A stretch of 64,000 nt of DNA, taken from Nemertoderma westbladi. Taxonomy: Eukaryota; Animalia; Xenacoelomorpha. Location: contig JAUCBJ010007962.1 in the NCBI GenBank assembly GCA_032718475.1, forward strand, positions 7,400 to 71,399, in the 5' to 3' direction. The notes under the pieces were generated by a model. The model had not been told where the DNA came from, searched no databases, and saw only the letters and a list, made by a program, of their open reading frames with translations. Below are positions 1 through 64,000 of this stretch, in pieces; positions within the stretch are counted from its first letter, which is position 1, and every line of letters starts with the position of its first letter. A program made the translations under genes and the position numbers.

Positions 1-1062
1 ACATGGTAAGGCAAAAAACCCGCAATGCACCAAATGCCTTTACACGGCTTGGCCTTGATGATTCAGATTGCGACATCTAGCAGCTGGTTGCTGGCATGGA
101 AACAGCCATTGGACGCATGGTTCTTTGTTTGGCTTGAGCCAATCAGAGCGATTTCTTCTGTCGACGTGTAGATATTCGGCCGATGATACTAGAAGTGTTC
201 AGTCTTACTGTTTTTGTGATACTGTTGTGTTCCTTCTATCTAGGCCAGGAACACCGGCTCTAGAGTCAATTCGTTTCAGACTTTAGAAGAAACATTAGTA
301 GGCTTAAGATTATAGAGCGTATAACTGTTATCAGTGCAACACGGCACATACATTGTCATATCATATCTTAACCTACCGTCTTAATGCTGTTTACTGTTGT
401 GTTTTGATTGAATATTATTTGGAGAACATTTATAAAGAACCCAAATTTCCCAATTTTCTTGATACACTACAGGTTAGAGAGACGGGTTATATATAGCGAT
501 TGCGACTTATATTATTGTGGTTTGTAGTGAATTTAATGCTATTTGATAAGCACTACATGAGTCCGTTGCTGTTCTCTTTATATATGATAAAATTCATTGA
601 CGGTCGGCAAATTAGTGAGCAGTATTGTGTTTTACCGGTAGTGTGCATGATTGTGACTGATAACTAAGCATTTTCTAAAGAATGCGCCTCATACGTGAAT
701 CATAAGCCTTACCGACTTGCCGTTGTGATTAGTATAAGTCATATCTCTGTTTACCTAGATAGAGCGCCACGTCCTAAAGGAACTGTTAATATTTCCCGAA
801 AGTGAATAATATTAGTCAGAAATTATTTATTAACGATCAATCGAATAATACAATAGGCTTACACTGCAATAATAATCTAAGCCCTCAGAATCCAGTCTCC
901 CGGGTATATCCAGCGGGTGAATGGACGCGCACTAGGCTGGCTTCTGCTATTGTTGTGTTTATTGGTATTAAATATTTGTCAACTTCTAAAGTCTATTTAT
1001 AAACCAAAAGACATATAAATTTTGGCAGGTTAAACTGCTAAAGGTCTTCAAAAGCGCGTACA
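1..1062 (+). repeat. 5' LTR of element 1 (first ~178 bp lie outside the window)
   Basis: Matches 11328-12389 with about 8 substitutions by eye; ends GCGCGTACA; CCAAT near 139 and Inr-like TCAGT near 199. Confidence 0.93.
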
Positions 1063-1104
1063 ATAACAGTTATTGTCTTTATTGCAGTAAGCAATAAAGT
1101 TGAA

Positions 1105-1260: not shown

Positions 1261-1483
1261 AAGTACATTAGTATTATTCGATTTTGATTATTGTATACCG
1301 GTAGGTCTTAGTATTTAATCAGGGACTGCAGCCCTGGTTCTTTATTGAGATTTTACCTATTTCTGTCGGTTTTATTTACATGTAAGTTAATATTGAGCTG
1401 AAGACGTGTAAGTCTGCTCAGATTGTTCAGATAATTGTAGGCCGGACTGTTGTTAGATTGTTGTTGGGTTTGGAGAGATTACG

Positions 1484-11071: not shown

Positions 11072-11149
11072 CTGTTTAGAGTATTTACGTATATTAGAAA
11101 CTGTGATTTTGTATATTTTATAGACTCAAATCCCATTTTCTGGGAGCGG

Positions 11150-26600: not shown

Positions 26601-27934
26601 ACTTACTGCGTACCTATTATGTACTATTATTTTTTTTATTTTTATTTTTATGTGTGGGAAGGGCGTCTCGCCCTCAATCCCACCCCCCTCAGTCCAAAAC
26701 TTGGGCGACTAAACTCTACTCGACTAAGGTGCTCCCTCTAACAGGCAGCACTTCCCCACAGCCCTCCTGTAGGTCTTCCTATCTTTCGCCCCTATCTTGC
26801 CACCTATCCGCACTTCTACCGATCGGACTCTTCCGTCCTCATCGAGTAATTGGTAGAGAAAGGAACAAGAAATTAGCAGGAGCTGTATAAAATTAGTAAA
26901 TATATCAGCGGACGGCAGATTAGCGCCATCCAACGGTAAGTAGCAGCGGTTTTGGATTTAGCAACCCTACATTACAAATAATACGCTCCTGATTGCCCTG
27001 CTTAATAAATAGAGCAATTTGTGTCTTTATTGGTTGGGTCGGGGTAGTTTGTTTAACACCAACCATTTCTAGTATTGATTCATACAGCATGTCTAATGTC
27101 CTAAGTCTAGAGAATGTAATGTAATGTAAGGTAAGTACAGTAGGCAGATGATACGGAAGCCCATAGTATCAAACAGTAGTGGAATAATCAACTACTGTAT
27201 CATATTTTCTGTCACAAAGTTCTCAATATATTACACAAAACTCACAACCAGTAGATTTTTGCGATATTTATGTGCCATGACGCTTGAAAGTCGCAAGTGA
27301 ATCGCATGTGAGTTTTATGCGACTTAACGCAAGTAGGTCGCTTGCGTAAAGGTCGGGCCATAACTCTTGGGAATCACATAAGATACGCCTGCGTTGCACG
27401 CTTGCGATACGCTTGCGCACTTTCACTGGGTAGTATCCCCTCGTCTTCTCTTCCGGATGCCTCTCGGTGAAATCCACCAGTATCTCCTTTCCTCCTAACT
27501 CCGCCTTTCTCTTTCGGACAAGTTTCTCTGCCATTTCGAACTCTCCACAATCGCTCACCCGTTAGGTGGTGCCTTGCCAAGGCGCGGTATGGATGAGTGA
27601 TAAAGTAAAGATGGTTTATTCAGTTCGAAAATGGCCTATCTCTCGCAGAATTTCTGAGTTATTACCTAATTTTGCCACCTAATTCCTAAAACTGTCAAAT
27701 TGTACCCTAAATTGAATAAATTAAAAATACGCTATTTTATTTTTAATTTAATCCTACTACTGTGCTACTACTTCTGCCAATGGATTATTCTACCTTATAA
27801 TCCACATTCTGGCCTACTCTGTGGGCTTGTGCAGTACAACAGTATGCGTCGCGTGGCCTACACGATTTATCCAGCTGTACTCACGTGCCCCCCTCTCTCT
27901 ACTCACTACTAACTAATATTTATATTATACATAC

Positions 27935-28515
27935 CCTTCTACCACTAACTCTTACTAACCAGTACTACGTACCCTTTCACTAACTTCTAACTAACTCTTA
28001 CTAATCGGTACTACGTACCCTCTTACTAACCTCTAACTCCCACTAACTCCTACTAACCGGTACTACGTACCCTCTTACTAACCTCTAACTCCCACTAACT
28101 CCTACTAACCGGTACTACGTACCCTCTTACTAACCTCTAACTTCCACTAACTCCTACTAACCGGTACTACGTACCCTCTTACTAACTTCTAACTCTCCCT
28201 ACTAACGGTACTATGTACCCTCTTACTAACTTCTAACTCTCCCAACTGACGGTACTACGTAACCTCTTACTAATTTCTAACTCTCCCAACTAACAGTACT
28301 ACGCACCCTCTTACTAACTTCTAACTCTCCCAACTAATGGTACTACGTACCCTCTTACTAACTTCTAACTCTCTCAACTAACGGTACTACGTACCCTCTT
28401 ACTAACTTCTAACTCTCCCAACTAACGGTACTACGTACCCTCTTACTAACTTCTATCTTAACTAACTAATGGTACTACATACCCTCTTACTACTTAACTA
28501 ACTAACTTCTATCTG
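27935..28515. repeat. 44/52-bp minisatellite, copy 2
   Basis: About 11 units visible. Confidence 0.92.
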
Positions 28516-28641
28516 CCTACTTACTGCGTACCTATTATGTACTATTATTTTTTTTATTTTTATTTTTATGTGTGGGAAGGGCGTCTCGCCCTCAATCCCA
28601 CCCCCCTCAGTCCAAAACTTGGGCGACTAAACTCTACTCGA

Positions 28642-31600
28642 CTAAGGTGCTCCCTCTAACAGGCAGCACTTCCCTACAGCCCTCCTGTAGGTCTTCCTAT
28701 CTTTCGCCCCTATCTTGCCACCTATCCGCACTTCTACCGATCGGACTCTTCCGTCCTCATCGGAGTAAGTGCCCACAACTCTCGCCAACCGCCACTGGTT
28801 GTTGATGATGGTATCGTCCGTGACGATCACCAGATCACCCTCATTTAACTCCCTGTTTGTATTTCTCCACTTGCTTCTCCTATGAAGCGTGGGTAGATAT
28901 TCCTCGACCCACCTCCTCCAGTACTCCGCGCTTATCACCTTAGCGACTTTCCAACTCTGGCGGAGTGTATATTGTCTGGGTCTACACCCCGCATGTCGAT
29001 GGTCGCTGGCCTTTCCATTAGAAAGTGACTGGGCGTCAGCACATCTAACGACTCAGGGTCATTATTTTCTGGATATAGCGGTCTGCTATCAATGATACCC
29101 TCACACTTTGCTAGTACCGTCCTTAGTACGTCCTCTGTTACCATGTGGTTGTTCATCAACTTCGTCATCAGACGCTTGGAACTACCCATGAGTCTCTCGA
29201 TGCATCCTAGAGTATGCGGAGCATATGGCGTCCTCCTCTCCCACTTTACCTGTCGCCTTCTCATGGCTGCCCTGACTTCCTCCCCTTCCAGGATATCCAA
29301 GGCCTCTGCCATCTCTTCTCCGCCCCCACAAAGTTGGTCCCGTTGTCAGAACATATTACTGCGATCGTCCCACCTTTGCGGTCTCTGAACCTTTCTAGAG
29401 CATTAATGAATGCTGATACAGTTGCATCTTGGGCGAGTTCTATCCCTACCGCCCACGTATTGTTACACACGAAGATAATACCGTAGCGTTTCTCCGTGTG
29501 TCGCATCACCTTAATCTTTATTGGCCCAAACATATCCACACCGCAATGCGTAAATGGCGGGTCATGTTGTCTCACCCTACTGGCCGGCAGTGGCGCCATC
29601 TCCTGTATAGCTCGCTCCTTCTTCGTTCGTCGGCAGGTCTGGCACTGCCCCACTACCGCCTTTACCTTCTGCCTCAACTGTTTGACCCAAAAGGTCCTCC
29701 GTATCTCCGTGAGGGTCCAGTTGGTGCCCCCGTGCAATATCGACTTGTGGGAGTCCCATATAATCTGGTGGACTATCAGCGATCCATTAGGGATGATGAT
29801 GGGCTTTGGTGGGATGACACACCCTAGAGTTCATTACTAACATCCCGTCATCATTGAGTTGTGGTGACAGCGCAATCAGCTCACTGTCCCGTCAGAGATG
29901 CTGTTGTTTACTGACGCATTCCACCTCGTTGCCGTAGTTCTTTCTCTGCTCGCAGCGGATGATTGCCTTGGCCGCTCCCTCCAGATCGATGGTTGTTCGA
30001 ATTTTTATGTCTTTGCCGACTCCCTTGAGGAAATCCCCGAAGGCTCTCCAGTACGCCACTAACTTCTTGGTCTTGTACCAACTGGAGCTGTAGCTAAGGA
30101 GTTTGTCCATTGGGTTATCGCACAGTTTTTCCGATTTTGGTTGCACGTCCCTTATCTCCCTCACCATTTGTCTATATATCTCTTCACTCTCTGAATCACC
30201 TTCCTCTTCCTCTAATGCTACCTCTCCTGAGCCCGGGTCCACCTTTCTCATCGGCGGCCAGGCTGTCTTATCGCTCAGAAATTGCAGCCCATGCTGCCAT
30301 AATACTTCCTTCTTCAGGAAAGTGTGGCATGCCACGCCCCTCAATAACAAGTCCGCTGGGTTCTCGTCCATTGGGCAGTAGTGCCACCTTTCTAACTCTG
30401 TGGTCGCCCTTTTTTCGTCCATCCTGTTTGCGATGAATATAGGGTACCTTGTCCTTTCGTTATGTAGCCAACCAAGCACTACCATGGAATCCGTCCAGTA
30501 GTGTGTCTCCACTATGTTGGGAATAACGTCCATCAAGTAGGCTGTGGCCCTTACTCCTAACCTCGCTGCTGTTAACTCGAGTTTCGGAACCAATGCTGAA
30601 TTTGGTGGCGTCGACTTTGCCTTGCTGAATGCGAGTTTGGGCTTGTGAGCCCCCTCTCGTTGTACTAAGTAGAGTGCCGCTCCGTATGCCTCTAACGATG
30701 CATCGGAGAACATTTTTTATGTAGATCCAGATTCGTCATGTCCCCATCTGGGAAATACACTCGTGGCATGCTGTATGTTCCCATCTGCTCTAAACTCTCT
30801 GTCCACTTGTGCCACTGCTTGCTGATCTCTTCCGGGACCTCCGTGTCCCAATCCTCCTTCAATTTGTATACTCTCTTGAGTATCTGTTTCCCCGTGACTA
30901 GTAATGGGGATGCTAGGCCTAGGGATCATATATCCTTGCTATGTACGACACATAGCCCCTCTTTGTGTGGATGTCTGCGCCCTCCTGGCTCAACTGATAC
31001 TTCAGTTCATCTGTCTCTCAGTTCCACACGATTTCCAGTGCCTTCTGTTGAGACTCTATCCTCTTGTTCGCCATGTCCTGTCCATTGGCTGTCGTGGGGT
31101 TATCCATGGTCGATTCTGGCCTCCTATCCTCTATGGCCTTAATAAATTCCTCCGAACTGGATTGGAACTTGGTCAGGTTAAAGCCGGATCCTTTAAGGAT
31201 GTCGCGAACCTCGCGCCCTGTATCCAGTAGTTCCTTAACCGTGTTTCCAGACTCCATTCCGTCGTCTACATAGAAGCCGCGTCGAATCATATCGACGGCT
31301 TTGGCGCTGTACTTATCCTCCTTCCCCTCTACTGTGTCTCTTACGGCCCCAGTTGTCGTAAACAAAGACGACTTGGCTCCCATATTCTGTACTACCATCT
31401 TGTACATCAGTATTGTCGACGGTTCCTCGTCGCCGTTGTACCATATGAAGCGTTGGCTGTCGCTATCCCCTTCCGTTACACGGACTTGGTTGAACATGCC
31501 TTCTATGTCGCAGGTGAAGGCGTGTTTCCCATTCCTGAATCTGAGTAGGACCTCGATCCCTGAGTTGTAGATATTGGGACCCTCCAGCAGATAATCGTTT

Positions 31601-35872: not shown

Positions 35873-35955
35873 CTTTAGTCTCTATTTCTGGTCGGTGGCA
35901 GTCAGTTAGAGTTTGGGTATTTTATCGCTTAGGGCAACTACTCGGATCTTAACAC

Positions 35956-36512
35956 TGTGACGGGATCCACCGAGGATCCCGGTTTATCCGGCTATCTTGA
36001 CTACGCGTCCCCGCCGTGTGTATGTGAAAGAAGTTCTGATTGAGCGTCTTATTGTCCTTGGTATGTATAATGATGGTAATAAAGTATAAGCACAGATTGA
36101 ATGAGTACCGGTAAGATAGTGACTAACTGAATGATGATGGTGGCAGTGGTCGAGGACGGTGTTAAGAGTTCCCGTTCTGCCCTAACTAACTGACTAACTA
36201 AAGTGAATGAAATGACACAGCAACTGGTAATATATTGCACTGGTTGGCCGTATTACATTACTCAGCGGATGCCTGCCCCCCATTGGCTAATAACTCACTT
36301 CTCGCCTCCCATCTCTCTGTGAGTGTTTTCTCCCCCACTACTGTTATTCTCTCTTGGAGGTATAACCCCTGACCCCCATTGTGTGTGTCCTTTGGGGTTT
36401 CTCATCCCCATTTATTGGGGTGATACGAGGTTGATTGGCAATCAACCTCGTGTTCCCAATATTGCTTAAAGCTAACTTTGTGGGGTGATTAGTGGAATTG
36501 AATTCGCTAACA
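35956..36512 (-). repeat. 5' LTR of element 3 (557 bp, TGTTAGCG...CCCGTCACA)
   Basis: Both ends homologous to LTR 60983-61604 (TGTAAGCG...CCCGTCACA). Confidence 0.85.
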
Positions 36513-38029: not shown

Positions 38030-39680
38030 AGGCCATGTGGAGATGCAGCAGGAGATGCAGGCGAATGGGCCCAGGGGAGATAGGAGCAACGTGTCAAATG
38101 GAGGGGGGTGTGAAGGAAGGGGTGATAGGATGAGACGAGAGGTCACGGGTTGGGGGGGGGGGGGGGGGGGGTACGTCGGTACGGGCACCCCATCGCAACT
38201 AGTTAGTGACGGGTGGGGCTACAGGCAACCGTGTGACGAGAGGGGGGGGGGGGGGGGTGGGGAAATAAATGCCCCACAGATGTTGTTGGTGGGAAATATG
38301 CGTGGTGATTCAAGTGAACCGGGGCTCCCAACGACGGAGGAGAATAGAGGGGGGGGGGGGGGGGGGCAACAAACGCCCCACAGATGTCTGTGGGAAATGC
38401 GCGCATTGAGTCAAGTGAACCATGGCACCCGACGATGGAGGAGAGTAGAAGGGCAGAGAATATCTACGAGGCTGTACAACTGGGTAAGAGGAAAAGCATT
38501 CACGCCGAAAGTGGCCAAACGAAGGAGCACCGAACCCATTCGGGAGACGGAAGGAGAACGGTAGAGTTCATCCGGGAGGTCGATATGAGATCTCATGAAC
38601 GGAGATATAATGCTGGGAGTAGAGGACGCGAGGAGGGTGAAAGAGACGAGCGAAGAAATATTGCTACGGGCAACCAGAGATTTCGGGATAGGACGGATAG
38701 TGAACCGACTACTACTAGGATCGGCATGCTGCATTGCAGCTGCATTTTTAAGAATGCTGTGCCGGCTTGTCAACAAAATTGCACCGCCACAACTCCCTAT
38801 CACCCATGACATTTGCTAGATCATCCGCATCTTTAAGGCCAGTGTCCTTTAAGATGCGTCTCAAGAAAGTCATGGGCTGTCCACCATGCTTATTCACTCC
38901 ATGAGGCTGCCAAAGTACAAGATTATGCACTGGCTGGTCCTCACGGCGAAAGCAATGTCCTGCAAAGCGGAGGCGATTTTGTTCTAGTGTCAAGCTTGGG
39001 GGAACCAATGAGACACCTCCAATGTTATATAGTGTCTGGTTGGAGATGTGTGCATTGTACTTGACACAATGAACCCGGCGTAGCATTCTTGTGAATGTGC
39101 CATCCAGAGATTTGGTGTCCTCAGCAGTTAGAGCCCAGCATGGACTCCCGTAGAGGAGTACTGGAACTACTGCTGCTCTAAATAATCGGACCTTAAGTTT
39201 CCGATTAATTCTAGGTGACTTCCAAATCCTGGAAAGCCTATTCAAGGCTGCCCATGCCTTTCCCTTACGTATTCGACGGTTAGTCGATAGTTGAGGTAGA
39301 GAAGTAGGGCCAGTGGGGTTGTACTTCGGGAGATTGCCGTTGCCCCGGAGAAACACAACCTGGCGAAATATATCACACACCAGGAGAGGGTTACAGAGTG
39401 TACCGGGACAAGGAGGATGAGAGAAGAAGAGATCGAAGGGAAACTTCCCATCGGAACGTTGCTGCCGATCTACGATATGGTAGTCGCGGGGAGGAGTTCT
39501 CGGAATATTCGATAAGTTTAAACTTTGATCTCGAGGAGCACATTCAGACTGCAGGACATACTGTAGGTCTTACAGAACATACTATAGGCCATTCTCGGAG
39601 AGATTGTGTAGGTGATAGGGTAGCGCGAATACTGGGATTAAATCTGGAGGTCGCATCTTACATACCGGTGATTAGGCAGG
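38030..39680 (+). mobile_element. Decayed gag fragment of the element 3/4 BEL family, split by an RTE insertion
   Basis: 38550-38707 resembles 63690-63826; 39290-39670 resembles 63830-64000 and the reverse complement of 33770-34130. Confidence 0.75.
38708..39270 (-). mobile_element. 5'-truncated RTE-clade LINE with (TAG)n tail
   Basis: LKVRLFRAAVVPVLLYGS..W, RLRFAGHCFR, DRELWR; 3' UTR nearly identical to 47855-47912. Confidence 0.88.
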
Positions 39681-45633: not shown

Positions 45634-48600
45634 GTGGCATTCATATATGATAATGAGGGTGTTGGCAATAAGGATACAAATCTAGGCCATCATGACCTTC
45701 AACAAACTCGAATTATAAGGGACCAAAACGATATAAAAGTCTTACAGACTATACTAACTGATGCATGGATTATACCATGGACTGTAGAAGATCCCAAATT
45801 GATCTATCTACTGGGTTGGTTTCTCCAATCGACGTTACTAAAGATCTTCTTCAAGCTAGAAGTGTTGGGGCTAAAAGTGTTATTTATAACATCCAAAGAA
45901 AGTTGTTTCCAACTTACAGAACACCATTTACATCCTGTTGAATAATAACAATGCAACCATGAGGAGGCTGGCACTCTTGTAATTCTCCATGCTCTTCATG
46001 CAGCACAAAATGGATCAAAGGTTGCATTCTGTGATGCCCCAAAATGCCAGGTTTATCATAAATGTGGATCTCTAAATATAATAACATATTGTAACATAAA
46101 CAATATATTATCTGACTTATCATTTTACATGGTAGAGGCAAACTTGTTGCTTTTAATTTAGCAAAGAACAATATTGATAAATATCTAGAGGTGCTAAGTG
46201 TTCTTGGCGAACTTTAGCAACTATCAGAATCCATATCTAGAGATTTAGAATGTTTTATATGCCAATTATATCTCAGGTGGTCAGATATTAATAACATTAA
46301 CGAGTTTTTTAGTATTTTCTTTTCATATCAAAAGTGGAGAAATTGAGTCAACCTTGCTGCCTGCCACGTTGTAAGGATTATTTATATTTACACCAATCCA
46401 GAGCCAGTCCAGAGCCAATCCAGAGCCAACTACCAAGCTTATATTTGTTATATTATAAGTTATTACGACAGCAGGCAATCATCCCAGGCATGGAAATCGA
46501 TCAACTTGCTTACTGAGAGGAAAAGCCAACCAACCACCAAGGTTAAGGCTGAATCACCAGCCGATCGACTCAATGGTTGGAAGGCCCACTTTGAAAAGCT
46601 CCTCAATAATGACAGGGTATTGCCTGATAACTTTATAGAAGTAAAAGTGTCTGAGTCTGTACTCCCAGACATTCCCATTGGCGATATCTCCTTTGCAGAA
46701 GTGAAGGCTGCTGCAAAGAGCATTAAGACCAATCGTTCCAGTGGAGTAGATGGTGTTCCCCCTGAGGTCTTTAAAATACCTGAGCGTTTAAAGCTCATCT
46801 ATCCCATCATAGTAGACATATACCAAACAACAAGAGTCCCACAAGAAATGAAAACGAAGAAGTTGGTGCCAATACCAAACAACAAGAGTCCCACAAGAAA
46901 TGAAAACGAAGAAGTTGGTGCCAGTTCCCAAGAAAGGCAACCTAACACTCTATGGTTCTTTTCGGGGAATCACATTGATCTCGATTGCTGCAAAGCTATA
47001 CAATATAATTATATTAAATCGCATCAGGGATCCCATTGAGAGACTGCTCCGTGGAAATCAGAATGGGTTCCGTAAAGGTCGTGGGACCATGGAGCATATT
47101 TTGGCACTTAGAAGGATAATTGAAGAGTTATCAAAAAAGAAAGACAGGCATCTGGCTGTTATCTTTGTTGACTTCTTTAAGGCCTTTGATTCAGTCTCCC
47201 GCTCACGTATGTTCAGCATACTTTCATTATATGGGATTCCTGATGAAATTATTGCAGCAATCAGATCAGTATACGATGATGGTTCGACAACATTTGTGTC
47301 TACTGTTGATGGTGACACAGAACCATTTGAAGTGTTATGGGGCGTCCTCCAGGGAGACACACTTGCACCATTCTTGTTCATAATTGTGGTTGACTATGTT
47401 CTACGCATGTTCTACGCATGATGATGGGGAATTAAGAATCGAGAATTAATCGGAAACTTAAGGTCTGATCATTTATAGCAGCAGTAGTTCCAGTACTCCT
47501 CTATGGGAGTCCATGCTGGGCTCTAACTGCTGAGGACACCAAATCTCTGGATGGCACATTCAAAAGAATGCTACGCCGGGTTCATTGTGTCAATTACAAT
47601 GCACACATCTCCAACCGGTCACTATATAACATTGGAGGTGTCTCATTGGTTCCCTCAAGCTTGACACTAGCTTCGCCGTGAGGACCAGCCAGTGCGTAAT
47701 CTTGTACTTTGGCAGCCTCATTGACTGTATAAGCATGGTGGACAGCCCATGACTTTCTTGAGACGCATCTTAAAGGACTTGAAGATGCGGATGATCTAGC
47801 AAATGTCATGGGTGATAGGGAGTTGTGGCGGCGCAATTTTCTCGACAAGCTGGCACAGCATTCTTAAAAATGCAGCTGCAATGCAGCATGCCGATCATAG
47901 TAGTAGTAGTAGTGGAAAAAGTGTAGTACCCATCGTCAATGTTCCTTCTCGCATAGGTCTGGGATGGCTGTTTTGGAAAAGGAGGATATGGTAATACCTG
48001 ACTGCATGCATGTTCTACCAGCTCCATCATCAATTCTCTCTCTATATATCTATGCTGTATTGCAATTGTACTGTACTATTGCAAATAACAAACTTCATTG
48101 CACGGAGTTCTGCAAATTCAAGTATTCACCAACTGGAAGGAGGCAGATTTGGAATGAACTGAAGCACTTGACCCCTCATATGAAGAAGATGCTATTCCTA
48201 ATACAGCTATAATTGTATCACATACATTACCTACTCGATTAAGTATACTCTATTTCCTCGTATGACATCATACCAGCTATGAATACATACATACCTTATT
48301 ATGTATTATTTTATTATTATTAAATGAAGAGGATTTAATATTCAAAAATGTAATTATTGAGGGAATCATCTTTGCAGAAATTATCTAGGAATAATCATGA
48401 TAAACAGATACATTAAAGTTAATACTAAACGAGTGTCAAGTTATATATTTGACATTATGTATCTGAGTCATCTTCAATTGCATCTGTAGTGGTGTTCATG
48501 GTAACCTGTGGAGGAGTGTTGTCTGAAATGCCAATTAGATTTCACTTGTCATCTTAAAGTAATTGTAGTTACATCACGATTGTTTTTTATTGACATAAAT

Positions 48601-49590: not shown

Positions 49591-49932
49591 GTTATATAAT
49601 ATTTTATCATATTGTAATGTTGATAAATTTTATTCCAAACATAAACAAAACATAGCCTGTTTGTTCTACAATGGCTTGAAATGTAGAATAATCGCATATA
49701 TTCAATAAATAAATGAAACATGATTGGCGCAAGTGTGTGGTTCAGCTTCAAAGTGGATAGTTATGTAGTTATAGTTGTGTCTATTCCTCATCCTCATACC
49801 ATGACACCACATAGCACTTAGCTTCCTGATGAAGCCGGATAATCAGCTGACCATTGATGCAATGTTATTGTCATATACCTACCAGGAAGTTTTTTCTTCT
49901 TGCTTGACTAATAAATAAATAAATTATAACTA

Positions 49933-52900
49933 CTAGAAAGGCATTTCCTAAAGGAAATGCAACCACGAAGCTAAGGAAAATTAAACACACTTTGACTCAT
50001 CAGTTCATTGGTACTAGTTAAAAGTCATATGTCTTAATACAACTCCCATCACCATGGCAACTGGAGTTTTCTAGAACTGCTCGGTTTTACATGAGGATCC
50101 AGTTTGTAGTTCCGTGACACAAATTGACTTCAAGGAAGTTTCATTGAGTAGTTGATGTCCAAAATTAAGGATGTATTTGTTAAAACATCAGTTTGCAGTG
50201 GTTGTCTTGGAAACTGATAAATATTAAAACGTTAATTGGATGCAGAATAAGTGATATAGTGGGGGTAGCGGTTGGTCCCAAGTCGTAATATCTTAATGTT
50301 ATGGCTTAAGTAATTATTTTATAAAGTTGAACATCTGTTTAACCTGGTTGCCTGTTAACTGAATTTTTTAATTGACCTCAATAAGCGCAACTATTGTCCT
50401 TATAATTGAGTTGAAAAACTTCAAGTTTCGATCTATTATTATTAATTGAGTTGAAAAACTTCAAGTTTCGATCTATTATGGTTGTTGTACAAATAGAGTT
50501 AAAAATATAGACTTTAATGTAATAGAAATGATTTTAATAAACTCCAGTTACCAGGGTAACTAGATATTTCTAGAAGTTTTGAGTTTTTCAAAAAGTTCCA
50601 AATAGGAGTCCAGATAACACATACCCAGTTTCAGAGAATGTTATCGTTTAGTCTATCTACAAAATTAACAATTTTTGTGTCAAAACATATGTTTTCAGCG
50701 GTTGCCATGGAAACTGAAAAATAGAACAACGTAATTCGGATGCAGAATAAGTTATATAGAGGGGGTAGGGATTGGTCCCATGTCATAATACCTTTAACTT
50801 TTGCTAAAAATTATCATTTTATAAATTTGAACATCTGTTTAGCCTGGTTGCCATGGTATAGTTTATATCTAAGTTTATATCTATTACGGTTTTTCTACAA
50901 ATGGAGTTATGAATATAGACTTGAATGATATAATCTGTAATAAACTCCAGTTACCACGGTAACTAGATATTTCAGGAATGTTTTGAGTTCCACTAAAAGT
51001 TCCAACTAGTTGTCCAGATAACACATACCCAGTTTTGTAAAATTTTATCGCGAAGTCTATGTCCAAATGAGTTATTTTTGTATAGAAACATCTGTTTTCA
51101 GCGGTTGTCATGGTAACTGCAAAACAGAACAATGAAATTTGGACGCAGAATAAGTTATATTGTAGGGGTAGGGATTGGTTCCAAGTCATAACACCTTCTC
51201 CTTAGGCTGCAAATTAACATTTTATAAATTTTAACATCTGTTTATCCCGGTTGCCAAGGTAACTGGATTTTCAATTTAAACTCAATCGGCTCTGCTATGG
51301 ACCTTATAATTGAGTTGAGAAACCCCAAGTTTATATCTATTGTAGTTTTCTTACAAATAGAGTTATAAATATTGATTGATTTTTCCTGGATATGAGACCC
51401 AGCACAAAAGATGCTCCTCGACGAGTAGTATATACATGCAAAATTTCAGGGTGCTTTTAAAGGCTAGTTTTATCCCCGGTCAAAAAAAACTAATCTGCCC
51501 CATACAAGTAAAAGGGCCCACTATGAATAGACCATCTCAGCTAAGGAAAATATTTCTTAGCGGAAGTAGTTCATTTTCCTTAGCTTCGTGGATTTTTACG
51601 AGAAAGGCATTTCCTAAAGGAAATGCAACCACGAAGCTAAGGAAAATTAAACAAACGGCCACACTTTGGTTCGTTGCTTAGCCTCGTTTAGTAGCATTTG
51701 TCAATAAATTAACTTCTATTCCCATGGAAACTAGAGTTCTCTGGAACTGTTGCTTTAACCTTTGAAAAAAAAATCAGTACAGATTGTGGTTCAGATAACA
51801 CATATACTGAGTTTCAGAAAATATTGTAGTTTATGTCCAAATTACCGATTTTCTATCAAAATGCATCTGTTTGCAGTGGTTGTCATGGAAACTGAAAAAT
51901 AGAACAAGGTAATTCGGATGCAGAATAAGTCATATAGTGGGGGTAGGGGTTAGTCCCAAGTCATAATACTATTAACTTGTACTTCAAATTATCATTTTAT
52001 AAATTTTAACATCTGTTCAGACTTGTTGCTATGGTAACTGTATTTTCTAATTAGCCTCAAACGGCTTGGATATGGATCTTATAGATGAGTTGCAAAACCC
52101 CAAGTTTATATATATTACAGTTTTGCTACAAATAGAGTTATCAATATAGACTTGAGAATGATATAGAGTTTAATAAACTACAGTTACCATGGTAACTAAA
52201 TTTCTGGAATAATTTAAGTTTCACTAAAAGTTCCAACTAGTGGTCCAGATAACACATACCCAGTTTTGTAAAATTTTATCGCGAAGTCTATGTCCAAATG
52301 AATAATTTTTGTATAAAAACATCTGTTTTCTGCGGTTGTCATGGTAACTGAAAAATAGAACAATGTAATTCGGATGCAGAATAAGTTATATAGTGGGGGT
52401 AAGGGTTGGTCCCAAGTCATAACACCTTGCCCTTAGGCCTCAAATTTACATTTTATAAATTTTAACATCTGTTTATCCCGGTTGCCAAGGTAACTGGATT
52501 TTCTATTTAGCCTCAATCGGATCTGCTATGGACCTTATAGTTGTGTTGCGAATCCCCAAGTTTATATCTATTATAGTTTTCCTACAAATAGAGTTATAAA
52601 TATTGACTTGAAATACATAGACTTTTTTTGAAGTCCGTTGCCATGGAAACCAGATTTTTCCTGGATATGAGACCCGGCCCAAAAGATGCGCCTCGCCGAG
52701 TAGTATATACATGAAAAATTTCAGGGTACTTTTAAAGGCTAGTTTTTTCCCCGGTCAAAAAAAACCAAATCTGCTCCATACAATTAAAATAGCCCACTAT
52801 GAATAGACCATCTCAGCTAAGGAAAATCGTTCTTAGCGAAAGTAGTTGATTTTCCTTAGCTTCGTGGATTAATGTGAGAAAAGAATCACTTTGCAGGATT

Positions 52901-55900
52901 ACTAGAAAGGCATTTCCTGAAGGAAATGCAACCACGAAGCTAAGGAAAATTAAACACACTTTGACTCATCAGTTCATTGGTTCTAGTTAAAAGTCATATG
53001 TCTTAATACAACTCCCATCACCATGGCAACTTGAGTTTTCTAGAACTGCTCGGTTATACATTAAGATCCAGTTTGTAGTTCCGTGACACAAATTTACTTC
53101 AAGGAAGTTTCATTGAGTAGTTGATGTTCAAAATTAAGGATGTACTAGAAAGGCATTTCCTAAAGGAAATGCAACCACGAAGCTAAGGAAAATTAAACAA
53201 AGGGCCACAATTTGGTTTGTTGCTTAGCCTAGTTTAGTAGCATTTGCCAATAAATAACTTATATTCCCATGGAAACTAGAGTTCTCTGGAACTGTTGGTT
53301 TTACCTTTGAAAAAAGATTCAGTAAAGATTGTGGTTCAGATAACACTTTCCGAGTTTCAGAAAATATTGTAGTTTATGTCCAAATTACCGATTTTCTATT
53401 AAAATGCAACTGTTTGCAGTGGTTGTCATGGAAACTGAAAAATAGAACAATGTAATTCGGATGCAGAATAAGTCATATAATGGGGGTAGGTCTTGGTCCC
53501 AAGTCATAATACTATTAACTTGTGCTTCAAATTATCATTTTATAAATTTTAACATCTGTTTAGTCTTGTTGCTATGGTGACTGGATTGTGTAATTAATCT
53601 CGAATGGATTGTATTATGTATATGGACCTTATAGATGAGATGCAAAATACCAAATTTATATATATTACATTATTTTGCTACAAATAGAGTATTGAATTTA
53701 GACTTGAATGATATAGACTTTAATAAACTCCAGTCACCATGGTAACTAGTTATTTCTGGAATGTTTTCAGTTTCACCAAAAGTCCCAACTAGTGGTCCAG
53801 ATAACACATACCCAGTTTCATAAAATTTTATCATGAAGTCTATGTCCAAATGAGTAATTTTTGCATAAAAACATCTGTTTTCAGCGGTTGTCATGGTAAC
53901 TGCAAAATAAAACAATGAAATTCGGACGCAGAATAATTTATATAGTGGGGGTAGGGGTTGGTCCCAAGTCATAACACCTTAACCTTAGGCTTCAAATTAA
54001 CATTTTATAAATTTTAACATCTGTTTAGCCCGGTTGCCAAGGCAACTGGATTTTCTATTGAACCTCAATCGGCTCTGCTATGGACCTTATAGTTGAGTTG
54101 AGAAACCCCAAGTTTATATCTATTATAGTTTTCCTACAAACAGAGTTATAAATATTGACTTGAAATACATAGACTTTTTTTGAAGTCCGTTGCCATGGAA
54201 ACCAGATTTTTCCTGGATATGAGACCCAGTCTAAAAGATGCGCCTCGACGAGTAGTATATACATGCAAATTTTCAGGGTACTTTTAAAGGCTAGATTTGC
54301 CGGGGGTCAAAAAAAACCAAATCTGCCTCACACAAGTAAAATAGCCCACTATGAATAGACCATCTCAGCTAAGGAAAATCTTTCTTAGCGAAAGTAGTTG
54401 ATTTTCCTTAGCTTCGTGGATCCCTTAAAATCGTCGCGAATGATATCTGAAATGTCTATAATAGCTGATTTACGAGAAAGGCATTTCCTAAAGGAAACGC
54501 AACCACGAAGCTAAGGAAAATTAAACAATTTGTTTGGTTCGCTTAGCCTTAGCCTCGTTTAGTAGCAATTGTCAATAATTAACTTATACTAGAAAGGCAT
54601 TTCCTAAAGGAAATGCAACCACGAAGCTAAGGAAAATTAAACAAACCGCCACACTTTGGTTCGTTGCTTAGCCTAGTTTAGTAGCATTTGCCACTAATTA
54701 ACTTATATTCCCATGGAAACTAGAGTACTCTGGAACTGTTGGTGTTACCTTTGAAAAAAGATTCAGTCCAGATTGTGGTTCAGATAACACATACCAAGTT
54801 TCAGAAAATATTGTAGTTTATGTCCAAATTACCGATTTTCCTTCAAAATGCATCTGTTTGCGGTGGTTGTCATGAAAACTGAAAAACAGAACAATGTAAT
54901 TTGGATGCAGAATAAGTTATATAATGGGGGTAGGTCTTGGTCCCAAGTCATAATACTATTAACTTGTGTTTCAAATTATCATTTTATAAATTTTAACTTC
55001 TGTTTAGTCTGGTTGCTATGGTAACTGGATTGTGTAATTAACCTCGAACGGCTTGTATATGGACCTTATAGATGTGTTGCAAAACCCCAAATTTATATAT
55101 ATTACATTATTTTGCTACAAATAGAGTATTGAATTTAGATTTGAATGATATAGACTTTGATAAACTACAGTTACCATGGTAACAAGATATTTCTGGAATG
55201 TTTTCAGTTTCACTAAAAGTTCCAACTAGTGGTCCAGATAACACATACCCAGTTTCGTAAAATTTTATCGCGAAGTCTATGTCCAAATGAGTAATTTTTG
55301 CATAAAAACATCTGTTTTCAGCGGTTGTCATGGTAACTGCAAAATAAAACAATGAAATTCGGACGCAGAATAAATTATATAGTGGGGGTAGGGGTTGGTC
55401 CCAAGTCATAACACCTTGTCCTTAGGCTTCAAATTATCATTTTATAAATTTTAACATCTGTTTAGCCTGGTTGCCAAGGCAACTGGATTTTCTATTGAAC
55501 CTCAATCGGCTCTGCTATGGACCTTATAGTTGTGTTGCGAAACCCCAAGTTTATATCTATTATAGTTTCCCTACAAATAGAGTTTTAAATATTGACTTGA
55601 AATACAGAGACTTTTTTATAAGTCCGTTTCCATGGAAACCAGATTTTTCCTGGATATGAGACCCGGCCCAAAAGATGCGCCTCGACGAGTAGTATATACA
55701 TGCAAAATTTCAGGGTACTTTTAAAGGCTAGTTTTTTCACCGGTCAAAAAACCCCAAATCTGCCTCACACAAGTAAAATAGCCCACTATGAATAGACCAT
55801 CTCAGCTAAGGAAAATCTTTCTTAGCGAAAGTAGTTGATTTTCCTTAGCTTCGTGGATTCCCATGGAAACTAGAGTTCTCTGGAACTGTTGCTTTAACCT

Positions 55901-58900
55901 TTGAAAAAAAATTCAGTACAGATTGTGGTTCAGATAACACATATACTGAGTTTCAGAAAATATTGTAGTTTATGTCCAAATTACCGATTTTCTATCAAAA
56001 TGCATCTGTTTGCAGTGGTTGTCATGGAAACTAAAAAATAGAACAATGTAATTCGGATGCAGAATAAGTCATATAGTGGGGGTAGGGGTTAGTCCCAAGT
56101 CATAATACTATTAACTTGTGCTTCAAATTATCATGTTATAAATTTTAACATCTGTTTAGACTTGTTGCTATGGTAACTGTATTTTCTAATTAACCTCAAA
56201 CGGCTTGGATATGGATCTTATAGATGAGTTGCAAAACCCCAAGTTTATATATATTACAGTTTTGCTACAAATAGAGTTATCAATATAGATTTGAATGATA
56301 TAGAGTTTAATAAACTACAGTTACCATGGTAACTAAATTTCTGGAATAATTTAAGTTTCACTAAAAGTTCCAACTAGTGGTCCAGATAACACATACCCAG
56401 TTTTGTAAAATTTTATCGTGAAGTCTATGTCCAAATGAATAAGTTTTGAATAAAAACATCTGTTTTCAGCGGTTGTCATGGTAACTGAAAAATAGAACAA
56501 TGTAATTCGGATGCAGAATAAGTTATATAGTGGGGGTAGGGGTTGGTCCCAAGTCATAACACCTTGCCCTTAGGCCTCAAATTAACATTTTATAAATTTT
56601 AACATCTGTTTATCCCGGTTGCCAAGGTAACTGGATTTTCTATTTAGCCTCAATCGGATCTGCTATGGACCTTATAGTTGAGTTGCGAAACCCCAAGTTT
56701 ATATCTATTATAGTTTTCCTACAAATAGAGTTATAAATATTGACTTGAAATACACAGACTTTTTTTGAAGTCCGTTGCCATGGAAACCAGATTTTTCCTG
56801 GATATGAGACCCGGCCCAAAAGATGCGCCTCGCCGAGTACTATATGCATGCAAAATTTCAGGGTACTTTTAAAGGCTAGTTTTTTCACCTATCAAAAAAC
56901 CCCAAATCTGCCCCATACAAGTAAAATAGCCCACTATGAATAGACCATCTCAGCTAAGGAAAATCTTTCTTAGCGAAAGTAGTTGATTTTCCTTAGCTTC
57001 GTGGATTTGTTAAAACATCAGTTTGCAGTGGTTGTCTTGGAAACTGATAAATACTAGAAAGGCATTTCCTAAAGGAAATGCAACCACGAAGCTAAGGAAA
57101 ATTAAACACTTTTTGACTCATCACTACATTGCTTTACAGAGTTAAGAGGCATATGCCTTTAAAACCTTTTCTAGAACTGCTGAGGTTTACATTAAGATCC
57201 GGTTTGTGGTTCCAGGTGACACATACTTCAATTCAGTTTCATTGAGTAGTTAATGTGCAAAACTAAGGATTTAATTGTTAAAACGTCTGTTTGTAGGGGT
57301 TGTCATGGAAACTGAAAAATGGAACAATATAAATTGGATGCGGAATTAGTGATATAGTGGGGGTAGGGATTGGTCCCAAGTCGTAATACCTTAAAGTTAT
57401 GCTTCAAATAACCATTTTATAAATTTGAACATCTGTTTAGCATGGTTGCCCTGGTAACTAGATTTTTTAATCAACCTCAATAAGCTCGACTATTGTCCCT
57501 ATCATTGAGTTGAGAAACCCCAAGTTTATATCTATTGTGGTTATTCTATAAATAGAGTTATGAATATAGACTTGAATGATATAATCTGTAATAAACTCCA
57601 GTTACCATGGTAACTAGATATTTCTGGAATGTTTTGAGTTTTACTAAAAGTTCCAACTAGTGGTCCAGATAACACATAACCAGTTTCGTAAAATTTTATC
57701 GCGAAGTCTATGTCCAAATGAGTAATTTTTGTATAAAAACATCTGTTTTCAGCGGTTGTCATGGTAACTGAAAAATAGAACAATGTAATTCGGATGCAGA
57801 ATAAGTTATATAGTGGGGGTAGGGGTTGGTCCCAAGTCATCACACCTTAACCTTAGGCTTCAAATTAACATTTTATAAATTTTAACATCTGTCTAGCCCG
57901 GTTGCCAAGGCAACTGGATTTTCTATTGAACCTCAATCGGCTCTGCTATGGACCTTATAGTTGTGTTGCGAAACCCCAAGTTTATATCTATTATAGTTTT
58001 CCTACAAATAGAGTTATAAATATTGACTTGAAATACATAGACTTTTTTCTAAGTCCGTTGCCATGGAAACCAGATTTTTCCTGGATATGAGACCCGGCCT
58101 AAAAGATGCGCCTCGTCGAGTAGTATATACATGCAAAATTTCAGGGTACTTTTAAAGGCTAGTTTTTTCACCTATCAAAAAACCCCAAATCTGCTCCATA
58201 CAAGTAAAATAGCCCACTATGAATAGACCATCTCAGCTAAGGAAAATCTTTCTTAGCGAAAGTAGTTGATTTTCCTTAGCTTCGTGGACTGGATTGTGTA
58301 ATTAACGTGGAACGGCTTGTATATGGATGGACCTTATAGATGTGTTGCAAAACCCCAAATTTATATATATTACATTATTTTGCTACAAATAGAGTATTGA
58401 ATTTAGACTTGAATGATATAGACTTTAATAAACTCCAGTCACCATGGTAACTAGATATTTCTGGAATGTTTTCAGTTTCACCAAAAGTCCCAACTAGTGG
58501 TCCAGATAACACATACCCAGTTTCATAAAATTTTATCATGAAGTCTATGTCCAAATGAGTAATTTTTGCATAAAAACATCTGTTTTCAGCGGTTGTCATG
58601 GTAACTGCAAAATAGAACAATCAAATTCGGACGCAGAATAATTTATATAGTGGGGGTAGGGGTTGGTCCCAAGTAATAACACCTTAACCTTAGGCTTCAA
58701 ATTAACATTTTATAAATTTTAACATCTGTTTAGCCTGGTTGCCAAGGTAACTGGATTTTCTATTTAACTTCAATCGGCTCTGCTATGGACCTTATAGTTG
58801 AGTTGAGAAACCCCAAGTTTATATCTATTATAGTTTTCCTACAAATAGAGTTATAAATATTGACTTGAAATACATAGACTTTTTTTGAAGTCCGTTGCCA

Positions 58901-60543
58901 TGGAAACCAGATTTTTCCTGGATATGAGACCCGGCCCAAAAGATGCGCCTCGTCGAGTAGTATATACATGCAAAATTTCAGGGTACTTTTAAAGGCTAGT
59001 TTTTTCACCTATCAAAAAAAACCAAATCTGCCTCACACAAGTAAAATAGCCCACTATGAATAGACCATCTCAGCTAAGGAAAATCTTTCTTAGCGAAAGT
59101 AGTTGATTTTCCTTAGCTTCGTGGATTAAAACTTTAATTGGATGCAGAATAAGGGATACTAGAAAGGCATTTCCTAAAGGAAATGCAACCACGAAGCTAA
59201 GGAAATTTAAACACACTTTGACTCATCAGTTCATTGCTTCTAGTTAAAAGTCATATATCTTAATTCAACTCCCATCACCATGGAAACTGGAGTTTGCTAG
59301 AACTGCTAAGTTTTACATTAAGATAAAGTTTGTGGTTCCAGGTGACACAAATCGACTTCAAGGAAGTTTCATTGAGTAGTTGATGTCCAAAATTAAGGAT
59401 GTATTTGTTAAAACATCAGTTTGCAGTGGTTGTCTTGGAAACTGATAAATATAAAAACGTTAATTGGATGCAGAATAAGTGATATAGTGGGGGTAGGGGT
59501 TGGGCCCAAATCGTAATATCTTAATGATATGGCTTAAGTAATTATTTTATAAATTTGAACATCTGTTTAGCCTGGTTGCCTGGTAAATGAATTTTCTAAT
59601 TGACCTCAATAAGCACAACTATTGTCCTTGTAATTGAGTTGAAAAACTTCAAGTTTCGATCTATTATGGTTGTTGTACAAATAGAGTTAATAATATAGAC
59701 TTTAATGTAATATATTTTGATAAACTCCAGTTACCATGGTAACTAGATATTTCTAGAAGTTTTGAGATTTTCAAAAAGTTCCAAATAGGAGTCCAGATAC
59801 CACATACACAGTTTCAGAGAATGTTATCGTTTAGTCTATCTAAATGAACAATTTTTGTGTCAAAACATCTGTTTTCAGTGGTTGCCATGGAAACTGAAAA
59901 ATAGAACAACGTAATTCGGATGCAGAATAAGTTATATAGAGGGGGTAGGTATTGGTCCCATGTCATAATACCTTTAACTTTTGCTTAAAATTGTCATTTT
60001 ATAAATATGAACATCTGTTTAGCCTGGTTGCCAGGTAACATGATTTTTTAATTTACCTCAATCTGCTCACCTATGGCCCTTACAGTTGAGTTGAGAAACC
60101 CCAAGTTTATATCTATTGCGGTTTTTCTACAAATAGAGTTATGAATATAGACTTGAATGATATAATCTGTAATAAACTCCAGTTACCACGGTAACTAGAT
60201 ATTTCTGGAATGTTTTGAGTTTACTAAAAGTTCCAACTAGTGGTCCGGATAACACATACCCAGTTTCGTAAAATTTTATCGCGAAGTCTATGTCCAAATG
60301 AGTATTTTTTGTATAAAAACATAAGTTTTCAGCGGTTGCCATGGTAACTGCAAATTAGAACAATGAAATTTGGACGCAGAATAAGTTATATAGTGGGGGT
60401 AGTGGTTGGTCCCAAGTCATAACGCCTTGTCCTTATTCTTCAAATTAACATTTTATAAATTTTAACATCTGTTTATCCCGGTTGCCAAGGTAACAGGATT
60501 TTCTATTCAACCTCAATCGGCTCTGTTATGGACCTTATAGTTG
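49933..60543 (-). mobile_element. Nest of about 9 non-autonomous Helitron copies (full copies 1.2-1.7 kb, with ~450-bp internal subrepeats)
   Basis: On the minus strand copies start TCCACGAAGCTAAGGAAAAT and end with hairpin GCATTTCC-TTTA-GGAAATGC plus CTAG; inserted between A and T without TSD; copies 49933-51592, 51599-52868, 52902 (split), 53145-54420, 54473-57005, 54589-55857, 57054-58288, 58289-59125 (partial), 59159-60543. Confidence 0.85.
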
Positions 60544-60982
60544 TGTAAGCGGATTCAATTCCACTTCATTACCCACCAGAAAATGGGACCAGTGGCATTT
60601 AGCAATACGTTGGGGATATGGTTATTCCCACGTGGCTCATAGATTCGAACAGTTAGCTCTCTATCGAGCGATCGGTAGAGAAAGGAACAAGCGATTTGCA
60701 GGAGCCATATAAATTAGTAAAATATATTAGCGGACGGCAGGTTAGCGCCATCCAACGGTAAGTAGCGGTTTTGTGTTTAGCAGTTGCGCAGTATAATAAT
60801 AGCGCGCTCCTGATCGCCCCTGTTTAACAGGTAGCAATAACATACCCAGGAGGGGCGGCCTGGAAAGCCAACCCCGAGAAAAGAACTCCACCCCACCCCG
60901 ATAGTAGATTGGGTTCCAGCGGAATTGAAGCGCACTTGAGGTTGATGCTATCTTCTCACTGGGAAGATAGCATGGGGGGGAG

Positions 60983-61604
60983 TGTAAGCGGATTCAATTC
61001 CACTTCATTACCCACCAGAAAATGGGACCAGTGGCATTTAGCAATATGTTGGGGATACGAAATTACCAATATTAATCTCGTCTCATAACCAACATTGGGG
61101 GGGGGGGGGGGGGCGACACAAGCCCCAAAGCCACAGAGAGAGGTGAGAGGTCAAACCACCTCGGAGGGAACACAGCTAGTAGAGGCTAGCAGCGGAGGGA
61201 AACACTCATAGGGACTGCCAAAGTGACAATTAGTATATTAGCCAGTAGTTGGGAGGGAAGCGCGTGATAGGGAACAGGAAAGCATCCATTGGGTAGAGGG
61301 CCAAAGTACATTAGGAGGTGAAACCAATATTTAATGTGTGGCTAATCATATATTATCTTACATTACTGGTTTACCGGTCAGTTGAGTTATTCAGTCAGTG
61401 CAGACCGGTCATAGTTAATGACCGCCACCGCCATACTGGTAACAATTAATCTGTATTTTCTGCTTATTATCTACCGATATCAAGAGACAACAGAAACTCT
61501 TATTGTTTTCCCCAACGGCCTCGGCCAAAGCTACTAGCACGATCCCCCAGCAGAACAGTGACGCGTACATTTCTAACCCGGTCGGGATCTCTGATCCCGT
61601 CACA
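60983..61604 (+). repeat. LTR of element 4 (622 bp)
   Basis: GGGGGGGAG then TGTAAGCG...CCCGTCACA; homologous ends to 35956-36512. Confidence 0.85.
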
Positions 61605-61668
61605 GTCATTAACTGCCACCTGCCAACTAAATAAACTGTGACAGCAGACGAAGACAGCGAGAAAGAAA

Positions 61669-64000
61669 ATGAGCGATCAGGAGACCCGAGATCCACAGGG
61701 AGAAAGGACGCCGCCGCGGACCCCGGACGACACCAACCAAACGATCCGTGAGGCCTCGACGCGACGGTATCAGCCTGCCACGCCAGATTCACCAACGAGA
61801 GACGATCTGGCTGCCCAAGCAGAGGGCGGCCGTCAACCACGAGGGAGAGACGAGTCGACGCACGACGGCGGTCGGAGTACCAAAGTCGCCGGCCAGCCAC
61901 AGGCTGAGGGCAACGGACGGCCCACAAGAATGGCGACGGTGGGGCTGCCGGTACGACGCCGGACGAGGAGAGGAGGCGGAGTCGGTGAAGAGGACGTCGG
62001 GACGAGTGATCGGCTACGATGGGCCTACAATGCCACCAAGAAACTGCTTAAGGAGGCCAAGGAAGGGAGAAAGGTAGACCAGCCTAAACTACATCAGAGG
62101 CTAGGTGAGTCAAATAAACATTTTCAATATTTAGTCCATTTTGGACAGGGTGAACTGGCGAGTGAGAGAGTGAGGGGGGTCGCCACGGAACTGTTTGAAT
62201 TGTGGCGGCCTGGAGTAAAGGAGCCTGAGGTAGTGTACGTAGGGCCTTACTTAGTGGATGCTAGAGGAATTAAGTTAGTGGGTTGGGCGGACCCGCACGA
62301 CGGCGAACCCGAGGTTAACCCCAAGGATTCGGTGTCGTTGGTTAGCAAAAACCCCAGAAAGCAGGGGAAAGTTAGTAGGACAGAGAGGCGACGGGAGTCC
62401 GTCACGACCGATAAGTCCGCTACAGCAAGAAGGGTGTTAGAGATAGATCTGGCGTATCAACTAGACCTTGTAGTGCTGGATCAGCAAGAGCTAGAGAGGC
62501 AACTGGACGAGGGAACCGCATTATTAGAGAAAGAGAGAGAGTTAGCGAGAGAGTGTAGAGAGAGGGCCGAGAGGGTGGCGAGAAACTGTAGGGAGCGGGA
62601 AGAGAGATAGATAAACGAGCGCGAGGAGCGGGAAGTGAGAATAGAGAACGAGCGCAAAGAGCGGGAGGCGAGAATGGAGAATGAGCACAACGAGCGAGAG
62701 GCAAGAGAAGTGAACGAGCATAGAGAGCGAGAAGCGAGAGAGGCAGCGAGGGTAGAGAGAGAAACGAATGAGTGTAGAGAGCGGGAGCCGAGAGAGGCAG
62801 AATTAGCCAACCAGAGTTTGAGAGAGGACAGAGAGAGAGAGAGAGAGAGAGAGAGCAGGAAAGCATATGCGGGATGATATGCATAACCAGCTGATGGGGC
62901 TTTTGCAATACCGGGCAAAGTAAAAGCGCCGGTTAGAACTAGCAAAGTTGGGATTATCGGAGAGTGAGGCTGGTTCGGGTAGTGTTTACGAGGAGCCAGA
63001 AGTAATGGAAACGTTTGTTAATACCCCACTTACAGGCACCGGATGACAGACCCAAGACTGGTGTAACCATACGGGCGGGGGGAGGGGGGGGGGGGGGTAT
63101 TAATAATACATTAGAAGGAATTAATATTAATAGTACCGTAGTAGACAACCCTAATCAAACCTTTGTTGCAGGAAATTATATTTTACCTGGTAATAACAAT
63201 TTTGACTTAAATGTGCAAAATAATCCAAATAATAATATTAATTTAAATGTACAAAATATTCCAAATAATAATACTAATTTAAACGTACAAAATAATCCAA
63301 ATAATATTACTACTTTGAATGTACAAAATAATTCAAATAATAATTTCAATTTAAACACACAAAATAATTCAAATAATAATTCTAATTTAAAATTGCAAAG
63401 TAATCCAAATAATAACCCTAATTCCGAACAAGATAATTTAAATAATTTAGATAATAATATTATTGATAACGGTGCTATTAATACGAACGTAGGGGATACA
63501 GGTGGTCCGACCAGAGGGAGCCTGCAAGGCCACGTAGTTACGCAGGGAGTAGCGGGGGTGAGTCAACCCGACGGGAGCCTGCAAGGCCACGTAGTTAGGT
63601 AGGGAGTAGCGGGGGTAAGTCAACCCGACGGGAAGCCTGCACCGTGAGCGGGCGAGCGACAAGATGTCGAGCCCAGTCGGAAGACGGAAGAAGAACAGTG
63701 GAGTTTATCCGGGAGGTCAAAGAGAGATCTCACAAAGGGGATTGCTACACTGAAGAGAGAAGAAGTGAAGAGAATAGAAGAAGCATTGCTACGAGCAACC
63801 GGAGAGCAAGGATGGACAGTGAACCGTCGGTAGTAGAGATGGAGTTAGAGAGTCAGTGGGGTCGAACTCCGGGAGATTGCCGTCACCCCGGAGAGACGCA
63901 GCCTGGTGAGATATACCACACACCAGGAGAAGGGTACAGAATGTACCGGTACCAGAACGAGAACAGGAGAGGGGATCGAAGAGAAACTTCCCGACAGGAT
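61669..64000 (+). pseudogene. gag: Element 4 gag N-terminal region, disrupted; ER-rich coiled coil and Asn-rich repeat
   Basis: Homologous to element 3 gag (ESNKHF.YLVHFGQGELA, YVGPYLVDARGIKLVGW). Confidence 0.85.

Follow-up and report, generated by a model that had tools for sequence, protein, structure and literature searches.

We found that, in a BEL/Pao element of the analysed DNA (element 4), the PBS position directly after the LTR is complementary to a segment inside the same LTR, and judging from sequence we consider it probable that the family of this element started reverse transcription from its own RNA and not from a tRNA, through a Tf1-like self-priming. The feature is real and represents a good case of likely BEL/Pao self-priming, a mechanism that is known in another superfamily. 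The window (the whole stretch of DNA that was analysed, 64 kb) contains the following features of element 4:

60945..60982, + strand: hairpin and polypurine tract directly 5' of the LTR
60983..61604, + strand: LTR (TG...CA, 622 nt), homologous to the LTR of element 3
61413..61422, + strand: LTR-internal partner, predicted 3' segment of the self-primer, ending in AC (AGTTAATGAC)
61583..61599, + strand: U5 terminal hairpin of 7 bp, 5 nt short of the LTR end
61605..61614, + strand: PBS position, beginning with GT and without TGG, exact complement of 61413-61422 (GTCATTAACT)
61669..62610, + strand: start of a gag-like frame, terminated by a stop (at 62608)

The two 10-nt segments are exact reverse complements, and the match begins at base 1 past the LTR end and stops at 10 nt. 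An earlier note on this DNA had described this complementarity directly after the LTR end at 61604, and we confirmed it: the complement of the PBS 10-mer was found in 15 out of 20,000 dinucleotide shuffles of the element 4 LTR (50 when offsets 0-3 were allowed), and just one out of 1,961 other internal 10-mers had a complement in this LTR. No Rfam matches were found at 60900-61800 and no tRNA genes in the 64-kb window.

The purine tract at 60974-60982 adjoins the TG...CA LTR, an arrangement of LTR and polypurine tract that agrees with BEL/Pao. The hairpin and polypurine tract upstream suggest that the element 4 LTR was at the same time the 3' LTR of a copy lying upstream; a second full LTR of element 4 was not present within the window. 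In the region 60542-60982, the start of the LTR is present as a 76-nt copy (98.7% identical), next comes a 209-nt piece that also occurs at 24792-25000, and the hairpin with the polypurine tract comes last; this region likely represents an upstream copy that collapsed and shares the element 4 LTR in tandem. Directly upstream of element 4, a satellite-like array of related units of about 450 nt, organised in higher-order repeats, occupies 49900-60550. Sequencing contigs from four runs over 61250-61850 comprised many related copies, and their summed depth was high at the partner, the LTR end and the gag start and dropped to very low values across the leader (61628-61669, 41-46 in X1). In those contigs, 7 out of the 15 listed joints departed at 61604-61614 and rejoined within the gag start, and there were no variants inside 61413-61422 among the 40 rows listed (165 further rows exist). 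We did not count the depth and variant tables as evidence of covariation, since partner and PBS are unphased and depth does not equal copy number.

The assignment to BEL/Pao was based on protein genes and not on the type of PBS, and for element 4 it goes through a sister subfamily, element 3, which was found on the other strand of the window:

35956..36512, - strand: LTR of element 3, followed by gag, protease, RT, RNase H and integrase remnants to about 28.6 kb
36159..36167, - strand: partner of 9 nt; in the predicted fold, pairing extends further 5' of it (TCTTAACAC)
35947..35955, - strand: PBS of 9 nt (GTGTTAAGA)

We identified DUF1759, aspartic protease, RT, Peptidase_A17 and integrase remnants in element 3, in gag-PR-RT-RH-IN order and with RT hits that carry PF05380, and on this basis element 3 belongs to BEL/Pao. 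Those domains are not the Ty3/gypsy-type RT and integrase of Tf1/sushi. In a quick RT tree without named reference elements, element 3 formed a long branch (2.59) of unsure placement within a 24-row group that included five of the tested families. Over aligned internal gag-side blocks, element 4 is 72-80% identical to element 3 in DNA sequence and is assigned to BEL/Pao on this ground, its own pol lying beyond the window; its N-terminal frame had no Pfam hit and the homologue search was empty. Element 4 is a broken, degenerate and probably intron-less BEL/Pao copy. As for other repeats, a 2-kb tandem duplication (24836-28771; 94.5%) spans the integrase end of element 3 and an array of 44-nt repeats, and no copy of the 5' LTR of element 3 was found after its purine tract. 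A separate RT fragment (RVT_1) is located at 46852-47421, and a related piece at 38708-39212 is inserted in an element-3-like fragment.

Three substitutions and one indel separate the PBS sequences of elements 3 and 4, and all four changes are mirrored in the partners. The swapped partner and PBS regions reached -11.3 and -10.8 kcal/mol compared with -19.9 and -27.5 kcal/mol for the cognate pairs, so that swapping costs about 9-17 kcal/mol of pairing energy. The claim that both segments differ from those of element 3 while pairing is retained was thus borne out. Within the window, the common frame GCAGA.CGG...CG was found at exactly two sites, one in each element, against an expectation of 0.15. 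Pairing is retained across differing sequences, as the note had argued in proposing that pairing and not sequence is under selection, but selection as the cause did not follow: the primer is copied into the PBS during plus-strand synthesis, compensation would probably arise mechanically in a self-primed element, and the mirrored changes need not prove selection. They support self-priming and alone do not show selection; a covariation test would require more copies of the family than elements 3 and 4. The U5 hairpin was likewise present in both elements as claimed (61583-61599 in element 4 and 35981-35961 in element 3; z-scores of -2.65 and -2.77), but the 7-bp stem that they share has the same letters in both and does not count as covariation. 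We rejected this hairpin as a clade-wide feature, given that none of the 14 related families described below had a comparably stable terminal hairpin (z-scores from -1.54 to +1.54). A requirement for a U5 stem-loop in Tf1 was reportedly described by Lin and Levin.

A separate BEL/Pao family of the window is represented by element 1, with LTRs at 1-1062 (cut) and 11150-12389:

321..331, + strand: partner of 11 nt, near-palindromic, 731 nt from the LTR end
1063..1073, + strand: PBS, exact complement of 321-331

An exact match at offset 0 was therefore present in all three window elements that have an LTR and a leader, and it was reproduced in 15, 81 and 20 out of 20,000 shuffles for elements 4, 3 and 1, respectively. 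Element 1 (1-12389) is likely a young non-autonomous copy: its LTRs are 99.2% identical over 1,062 nt, and its pol frame, reaching from a protease-like part to the end of RNase H, gave no RT hit. The LTR end and PBS of element 1 (1055-1077) also form a local inverted repeat, which could compete with the distant partner.

We examined related loci that were searched by RT alignment, keeping the best 80 of the metagenome contigs (498 confirmed out of 593 matches) and 7 genome contigs. Those 87 loci correspond to about 55 groups at 90% RT identity; many of them share accession series and their hosts may be few. No relatives were found among viral contigs, where one pattern match (L001) was without RT. 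Seven loci (L082-L088) carry BEL/Pao RT on contigs of bacterial metagenome-assembled genomes, likely as host contamination of the bacterial bins. In 29 out of the 87 loci, representing 14 families, the 3' end of the LTR could be set independently of pairing, at the point where the 5' and 3' copies diverge after CA. Among 20 loci that were inspected, L044, L047, L058 and L077 were dropped, as the repeat was not a CA-ended LTR end or the contig was cut, and L088 was used solely as a family member. The other 58 loci had no independent LTR end and were left out; a blind scan flagged 11 of them, which we did not count because many CA sites had been tried.

Pairing was scored at offsets 0-5, either as a contiguous match or as a match across a GT-AG gap. 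Thirteen of the 14 families paired 11-16 nt with their own LTR, a length reached by 8 out of 272 cross-family pairs, and the flanks of the 3' LTRs reached 4-9 nt. The fourteenth family (L083) paired at 10 out of 11 positions across a junction, with one uncompensated mismatch, and L021 had one uncompensated position at the duplex end. Mirrored single changes were also observed between neighbouring families (e.g. L010 and L059). With splicing allowed, 47 and 16 out of the 272 cross-family pairs reached 9 and 10 nt (12 and 1 when matches had to be contiguous), so elements 3 and 4, with 9 and 10 nt, exceed this control only modestly by themselves. The evidence from the relatives is stronger than that from the element 4 locus.

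The 14 families and the three window elements together provide 17 PBSs, all of which start with different 9-mers and pair far better with their own LTR than with other LTRs. No tRNA-type PBS was found among them, with TGG absent from the first 8 nt past the LTR end in 17 out of 17, and the statement that a fixed tRNA cannot explain the pattern withstood this comparison. The paired PBS begins with GT in 16 out of 17 cases, after a spacer of 0-4 nt, and the partner ends with AC in 16 out of 17; element 1 departs from this rule. The 3' end of the partner meets the LTR-proximal base of the PBS, and pairing ends there in 15 of 16 listed cases, running one base further in the other. Apart from element 1, the partner is located 74-278 nt from the LTR end in 15 listed cases. 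Those elements hence have the traits of the self-primed class, i.e. an LTR-adjacent PBS that is complementary to an LTR segment and has no tRNA match.

In 12 out of 14 families, the partner spans the junction of a predicted GT-AG intron inside the LTR. The donors, chosen by complementarity alone, were GTAAGT in 9 out of 12 families compared with 10 out of 926 GT sites, and the acceptors had 8-11 pyrimidines per 13 nt in all 12. In most relatives, the primer segment would thus exist only after splicing of the predicted LTR intron. In L087 the partner is contiguous, and LTR versions with and precisely without the predicted intron both occur in L013 and in L067/L068. The LTRs with and without the intron were located at 1-214 and 6935-7265 of L013, and at 6924-7103 of L067 and 1-854 of L068; short-read assembly may merge subfamilies. 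A splice model was also considered for element 4, the partner of which begins with AG, and was rejected since the best donor adds 2 pairs. No donor in elements 3 and 4 yielded at least 3 extra pairs; they are accordingly of the contiguous type, and likely represent the intron-less form as far as their sequences indicate.

Distant relatives keep the match to their own LTR with different letters, mostly across a predicted splice joint, and for this reason this group of BEL/Pao families likely self-primes. The position of the primer was modelled from the predicted start of transcription in element 4:

61349..61355, + strand: TATA-like TATATTA, common to elements 3 and 4, putative promoter element
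61378..61384, + strand: putative initiator-like motif, 31 nt past the TATA-like box

The starts of elements 3 and 4 were predicted from TATATTA and an initiator-like motif about 30 nt later, by comparison with consensus motifs. The TATA-like motif is weak, and the motif spacing puts the predicted start about 33-37 nt 5' of the partner. The predicted starts are 61380 in element 4 and near 36204 in element 3, i.e. 43 and 46 nt from the 3' end of the partner, so that the primer would probably be internal to the transcript, about 43-46 nt from the predicted start. In the proposed mechanism, transcription would begin near 61380, and 61413-61422 would anneal with 61605-61614, which would leave about 180 nt of R-U5 in a loop. 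A cut after 61422, analogous to the RNase H cut of Tf1, would leave a 3' end in AC, and RT would then copy the last base of the LTR first, since the 3' end of the partner meets the LTR-proximal PBS base. In the relatives with a predicted LTR intron, the primer segment would be assembled by splicing; in elements 3 and 4 it would be contiguous. Plus-strand synthesis would finally copy the primer back into the PBS, and primer and PBS would change together, in part by templating and in part by selection. The available parts of two sources describe such copying of the primer into the PBS by the plus strand in LTR elements (PMC7175516, PMC11042837). As plus-strand synthesis ends in a PBS copied from the primer, a self-primer would likely overwrite its own PBS. 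We are somewhat inclined to think that a broad animal branch of BEL/Pao left tRNA priming, with host splicing of an LTR intron building an internal AC-ended primer, and with elements 3 and 4 among the intron-less offshoots that have it contiguous. Under this proposal the PBS would be rewritten from the primer in every replication cycle, and the primer sequence could hence drift freely between families.

The predicted folding differed between the two elements, and two further segments of element 4 matter in this respect:

61406..61424, + strand: local 7-bp hairpin over the partner, a rival of the long-range duplex (element 3 allows only 3 bp)
61635..61642, + strand: leader 8-mer complementary to 61599-61606 (the LTR end and PBS bases 1-2), a competing fold

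The duplex of element 3 folds better with a leader from the predicted start, and from that start its probability was 0.997 in 4 out of 4 lengths. The duplex of element 4 reached 0.70, 0.34, 0.64, 0.002, 0 and 0 in six lengths from the predicted start; over starts 5' of the partner it ranged from 0.00 to 0.78, and it was at most 0.05 once the RNA reached 61660 or further. These low values are due to the competing folds of the local hairpin and the leader segment, which are up to about 6 kcal/mol lower. The modelled folding thus counts against a stable cis duplex in the degenerate element 4 copy. The z-scores of whole-region folding were modest (-2.14 and -1.44).

The alternative folds over partner and PBS in element 4 would also be compatible with a structural or regulatory duplex (packaging, dimerisation, translation switch or splicing check), with priming by another RNA or a protein, as would the palindrome TTAA that the 9-10 nt cores of the duplexes of elements 3 and 4 include and the further 5' pairing of element 3. 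This explanation gives no reason for the helix to end at the LTR boundary or spacer, nor in AC (16 out of 17), and no alternative primer site was seen; we regard it as unlikely. Self-priming could also act in trans, with a separate short LTR transcript or a second packaged genome giving the primer and no fold-back in cis. The poor prediction of the element 4 cis duplex in longer RNAs and the distance of 731 nt in element 1 point in this direction, against which stand the 74-278 nt of the other 15 listed cases and the cis fold probability of element 3, making it very unlikely. It is highly improbable that a host tRNA half or another small RNA primes, with the LTR segment as its captured copy or decoy: the ICTV gives tRNA-Arg/Gly priming for the family (PMC8742986), and half-tRNA priming is described for some copia lineages in the accessible text of PMC6317226, but the 17 PBS 9-mers all differ and lack TGG, and the predicted intron splits the complement in 12 families. 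Finally, chance complementarity or functionless inverted-repeat template switching is a negligible option, already largely refuted by the comparison of own-LTR and cross-family pairing: the window matches, only 9-11 nt long and AT-rich, would be compatible with it, but the three window elements and 13 out of 14 families exceed the shuffles, the 3' flanks (4-9 nt) and the cross-family controls.

If the self-priming of BEL/Pao proposed here is true, self-priming would have arisen independently once more, through an internal primer that the element makes itself and that is often assembled by splicing, and reverse transcription would be linked with the processing of host RNA. The failure of annotation to recognise a PBS in such elements would then be accounted for, and silencing by tRNA fragments directed at the PBS would not reach them. 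Exact positions of RNA ends follow as predictions of the model. According to the ICTV profile, BEL/Pao replication is poorly understood and tRNA priming is assumed (PMC8742986). Among the titles and opening abstract lines surveyed, no publication described self-priming for BEL/Pao elements, and subscription journals, Repbase, GyDB and supplements may mention them. The terms PBS, tRNA and priming are absent from two BEL/Pao papers (PMC554778, PMC3118150), and the part of PMC8220671 that was available mentions the PBS only in general.

The elements resemble Belpaoviridae (BEL/Pao, Semotivirus) in their LTRs, polypurine tract and the order of gag with DUF1759, protease, RT, Peptidase_A17/RNase H and integrase. 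Unlike the ICTV description of Belpaoviridae, with an 18-nt PBS for tRNA-Arg or tRNA-Gly and tRNA-primed replication (PMC8742986), none of the 17 PBSs fits such a site. Fungal GalEa copia elements with their Conserved Hairpin Site and bivalve TRIMs are likewise without a canonical PBS, and short inverted repeats have been proposed for their priming; according to the sections available of that source, both arms are internal and 12-41 nt apart (PMC6934838), whereas here one arm is located in the LTR. For plant Tcn1 chromoviruses and TAR/Houba/Osr-1 copia elements, self-priming was predicted from a complementarity of at least 10 nt located 0-5 nt past the 5' LTR. This length is reached by elements 4 and 1 and by all 14 families (L083 with one internal mismatch, and most only across the predicted junction), and element 3 has 9 nt. 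Those plant elements belong to other superfamilies, and a splice-built primer is not mentioned in the accessible portion of the source (PMC6317226). The closest parallel in kind is Tf1/sushi of Ty3/gypsy, including Tf1/Tf2 of Schizosaccharomyces pombe and Tj1, which in the available text of the sources likewise have no tRNA PBS and have about 11 nt past the LTR that are complementary to an LTR segment (PMC7175516, PMC4600332, PMC5341516). For Tf1, the accessible part of PMC7175516 describes how the initial 11 bases anneal to the PBS and how an RNase H cut behind base 11 then yields the primer. In contrast to Tf1/sushi, the elements described here are BEL/Pao, their predicted primer is internal, cleavage is proposed by analogy, and their relatives appear to build the primer across an intron.
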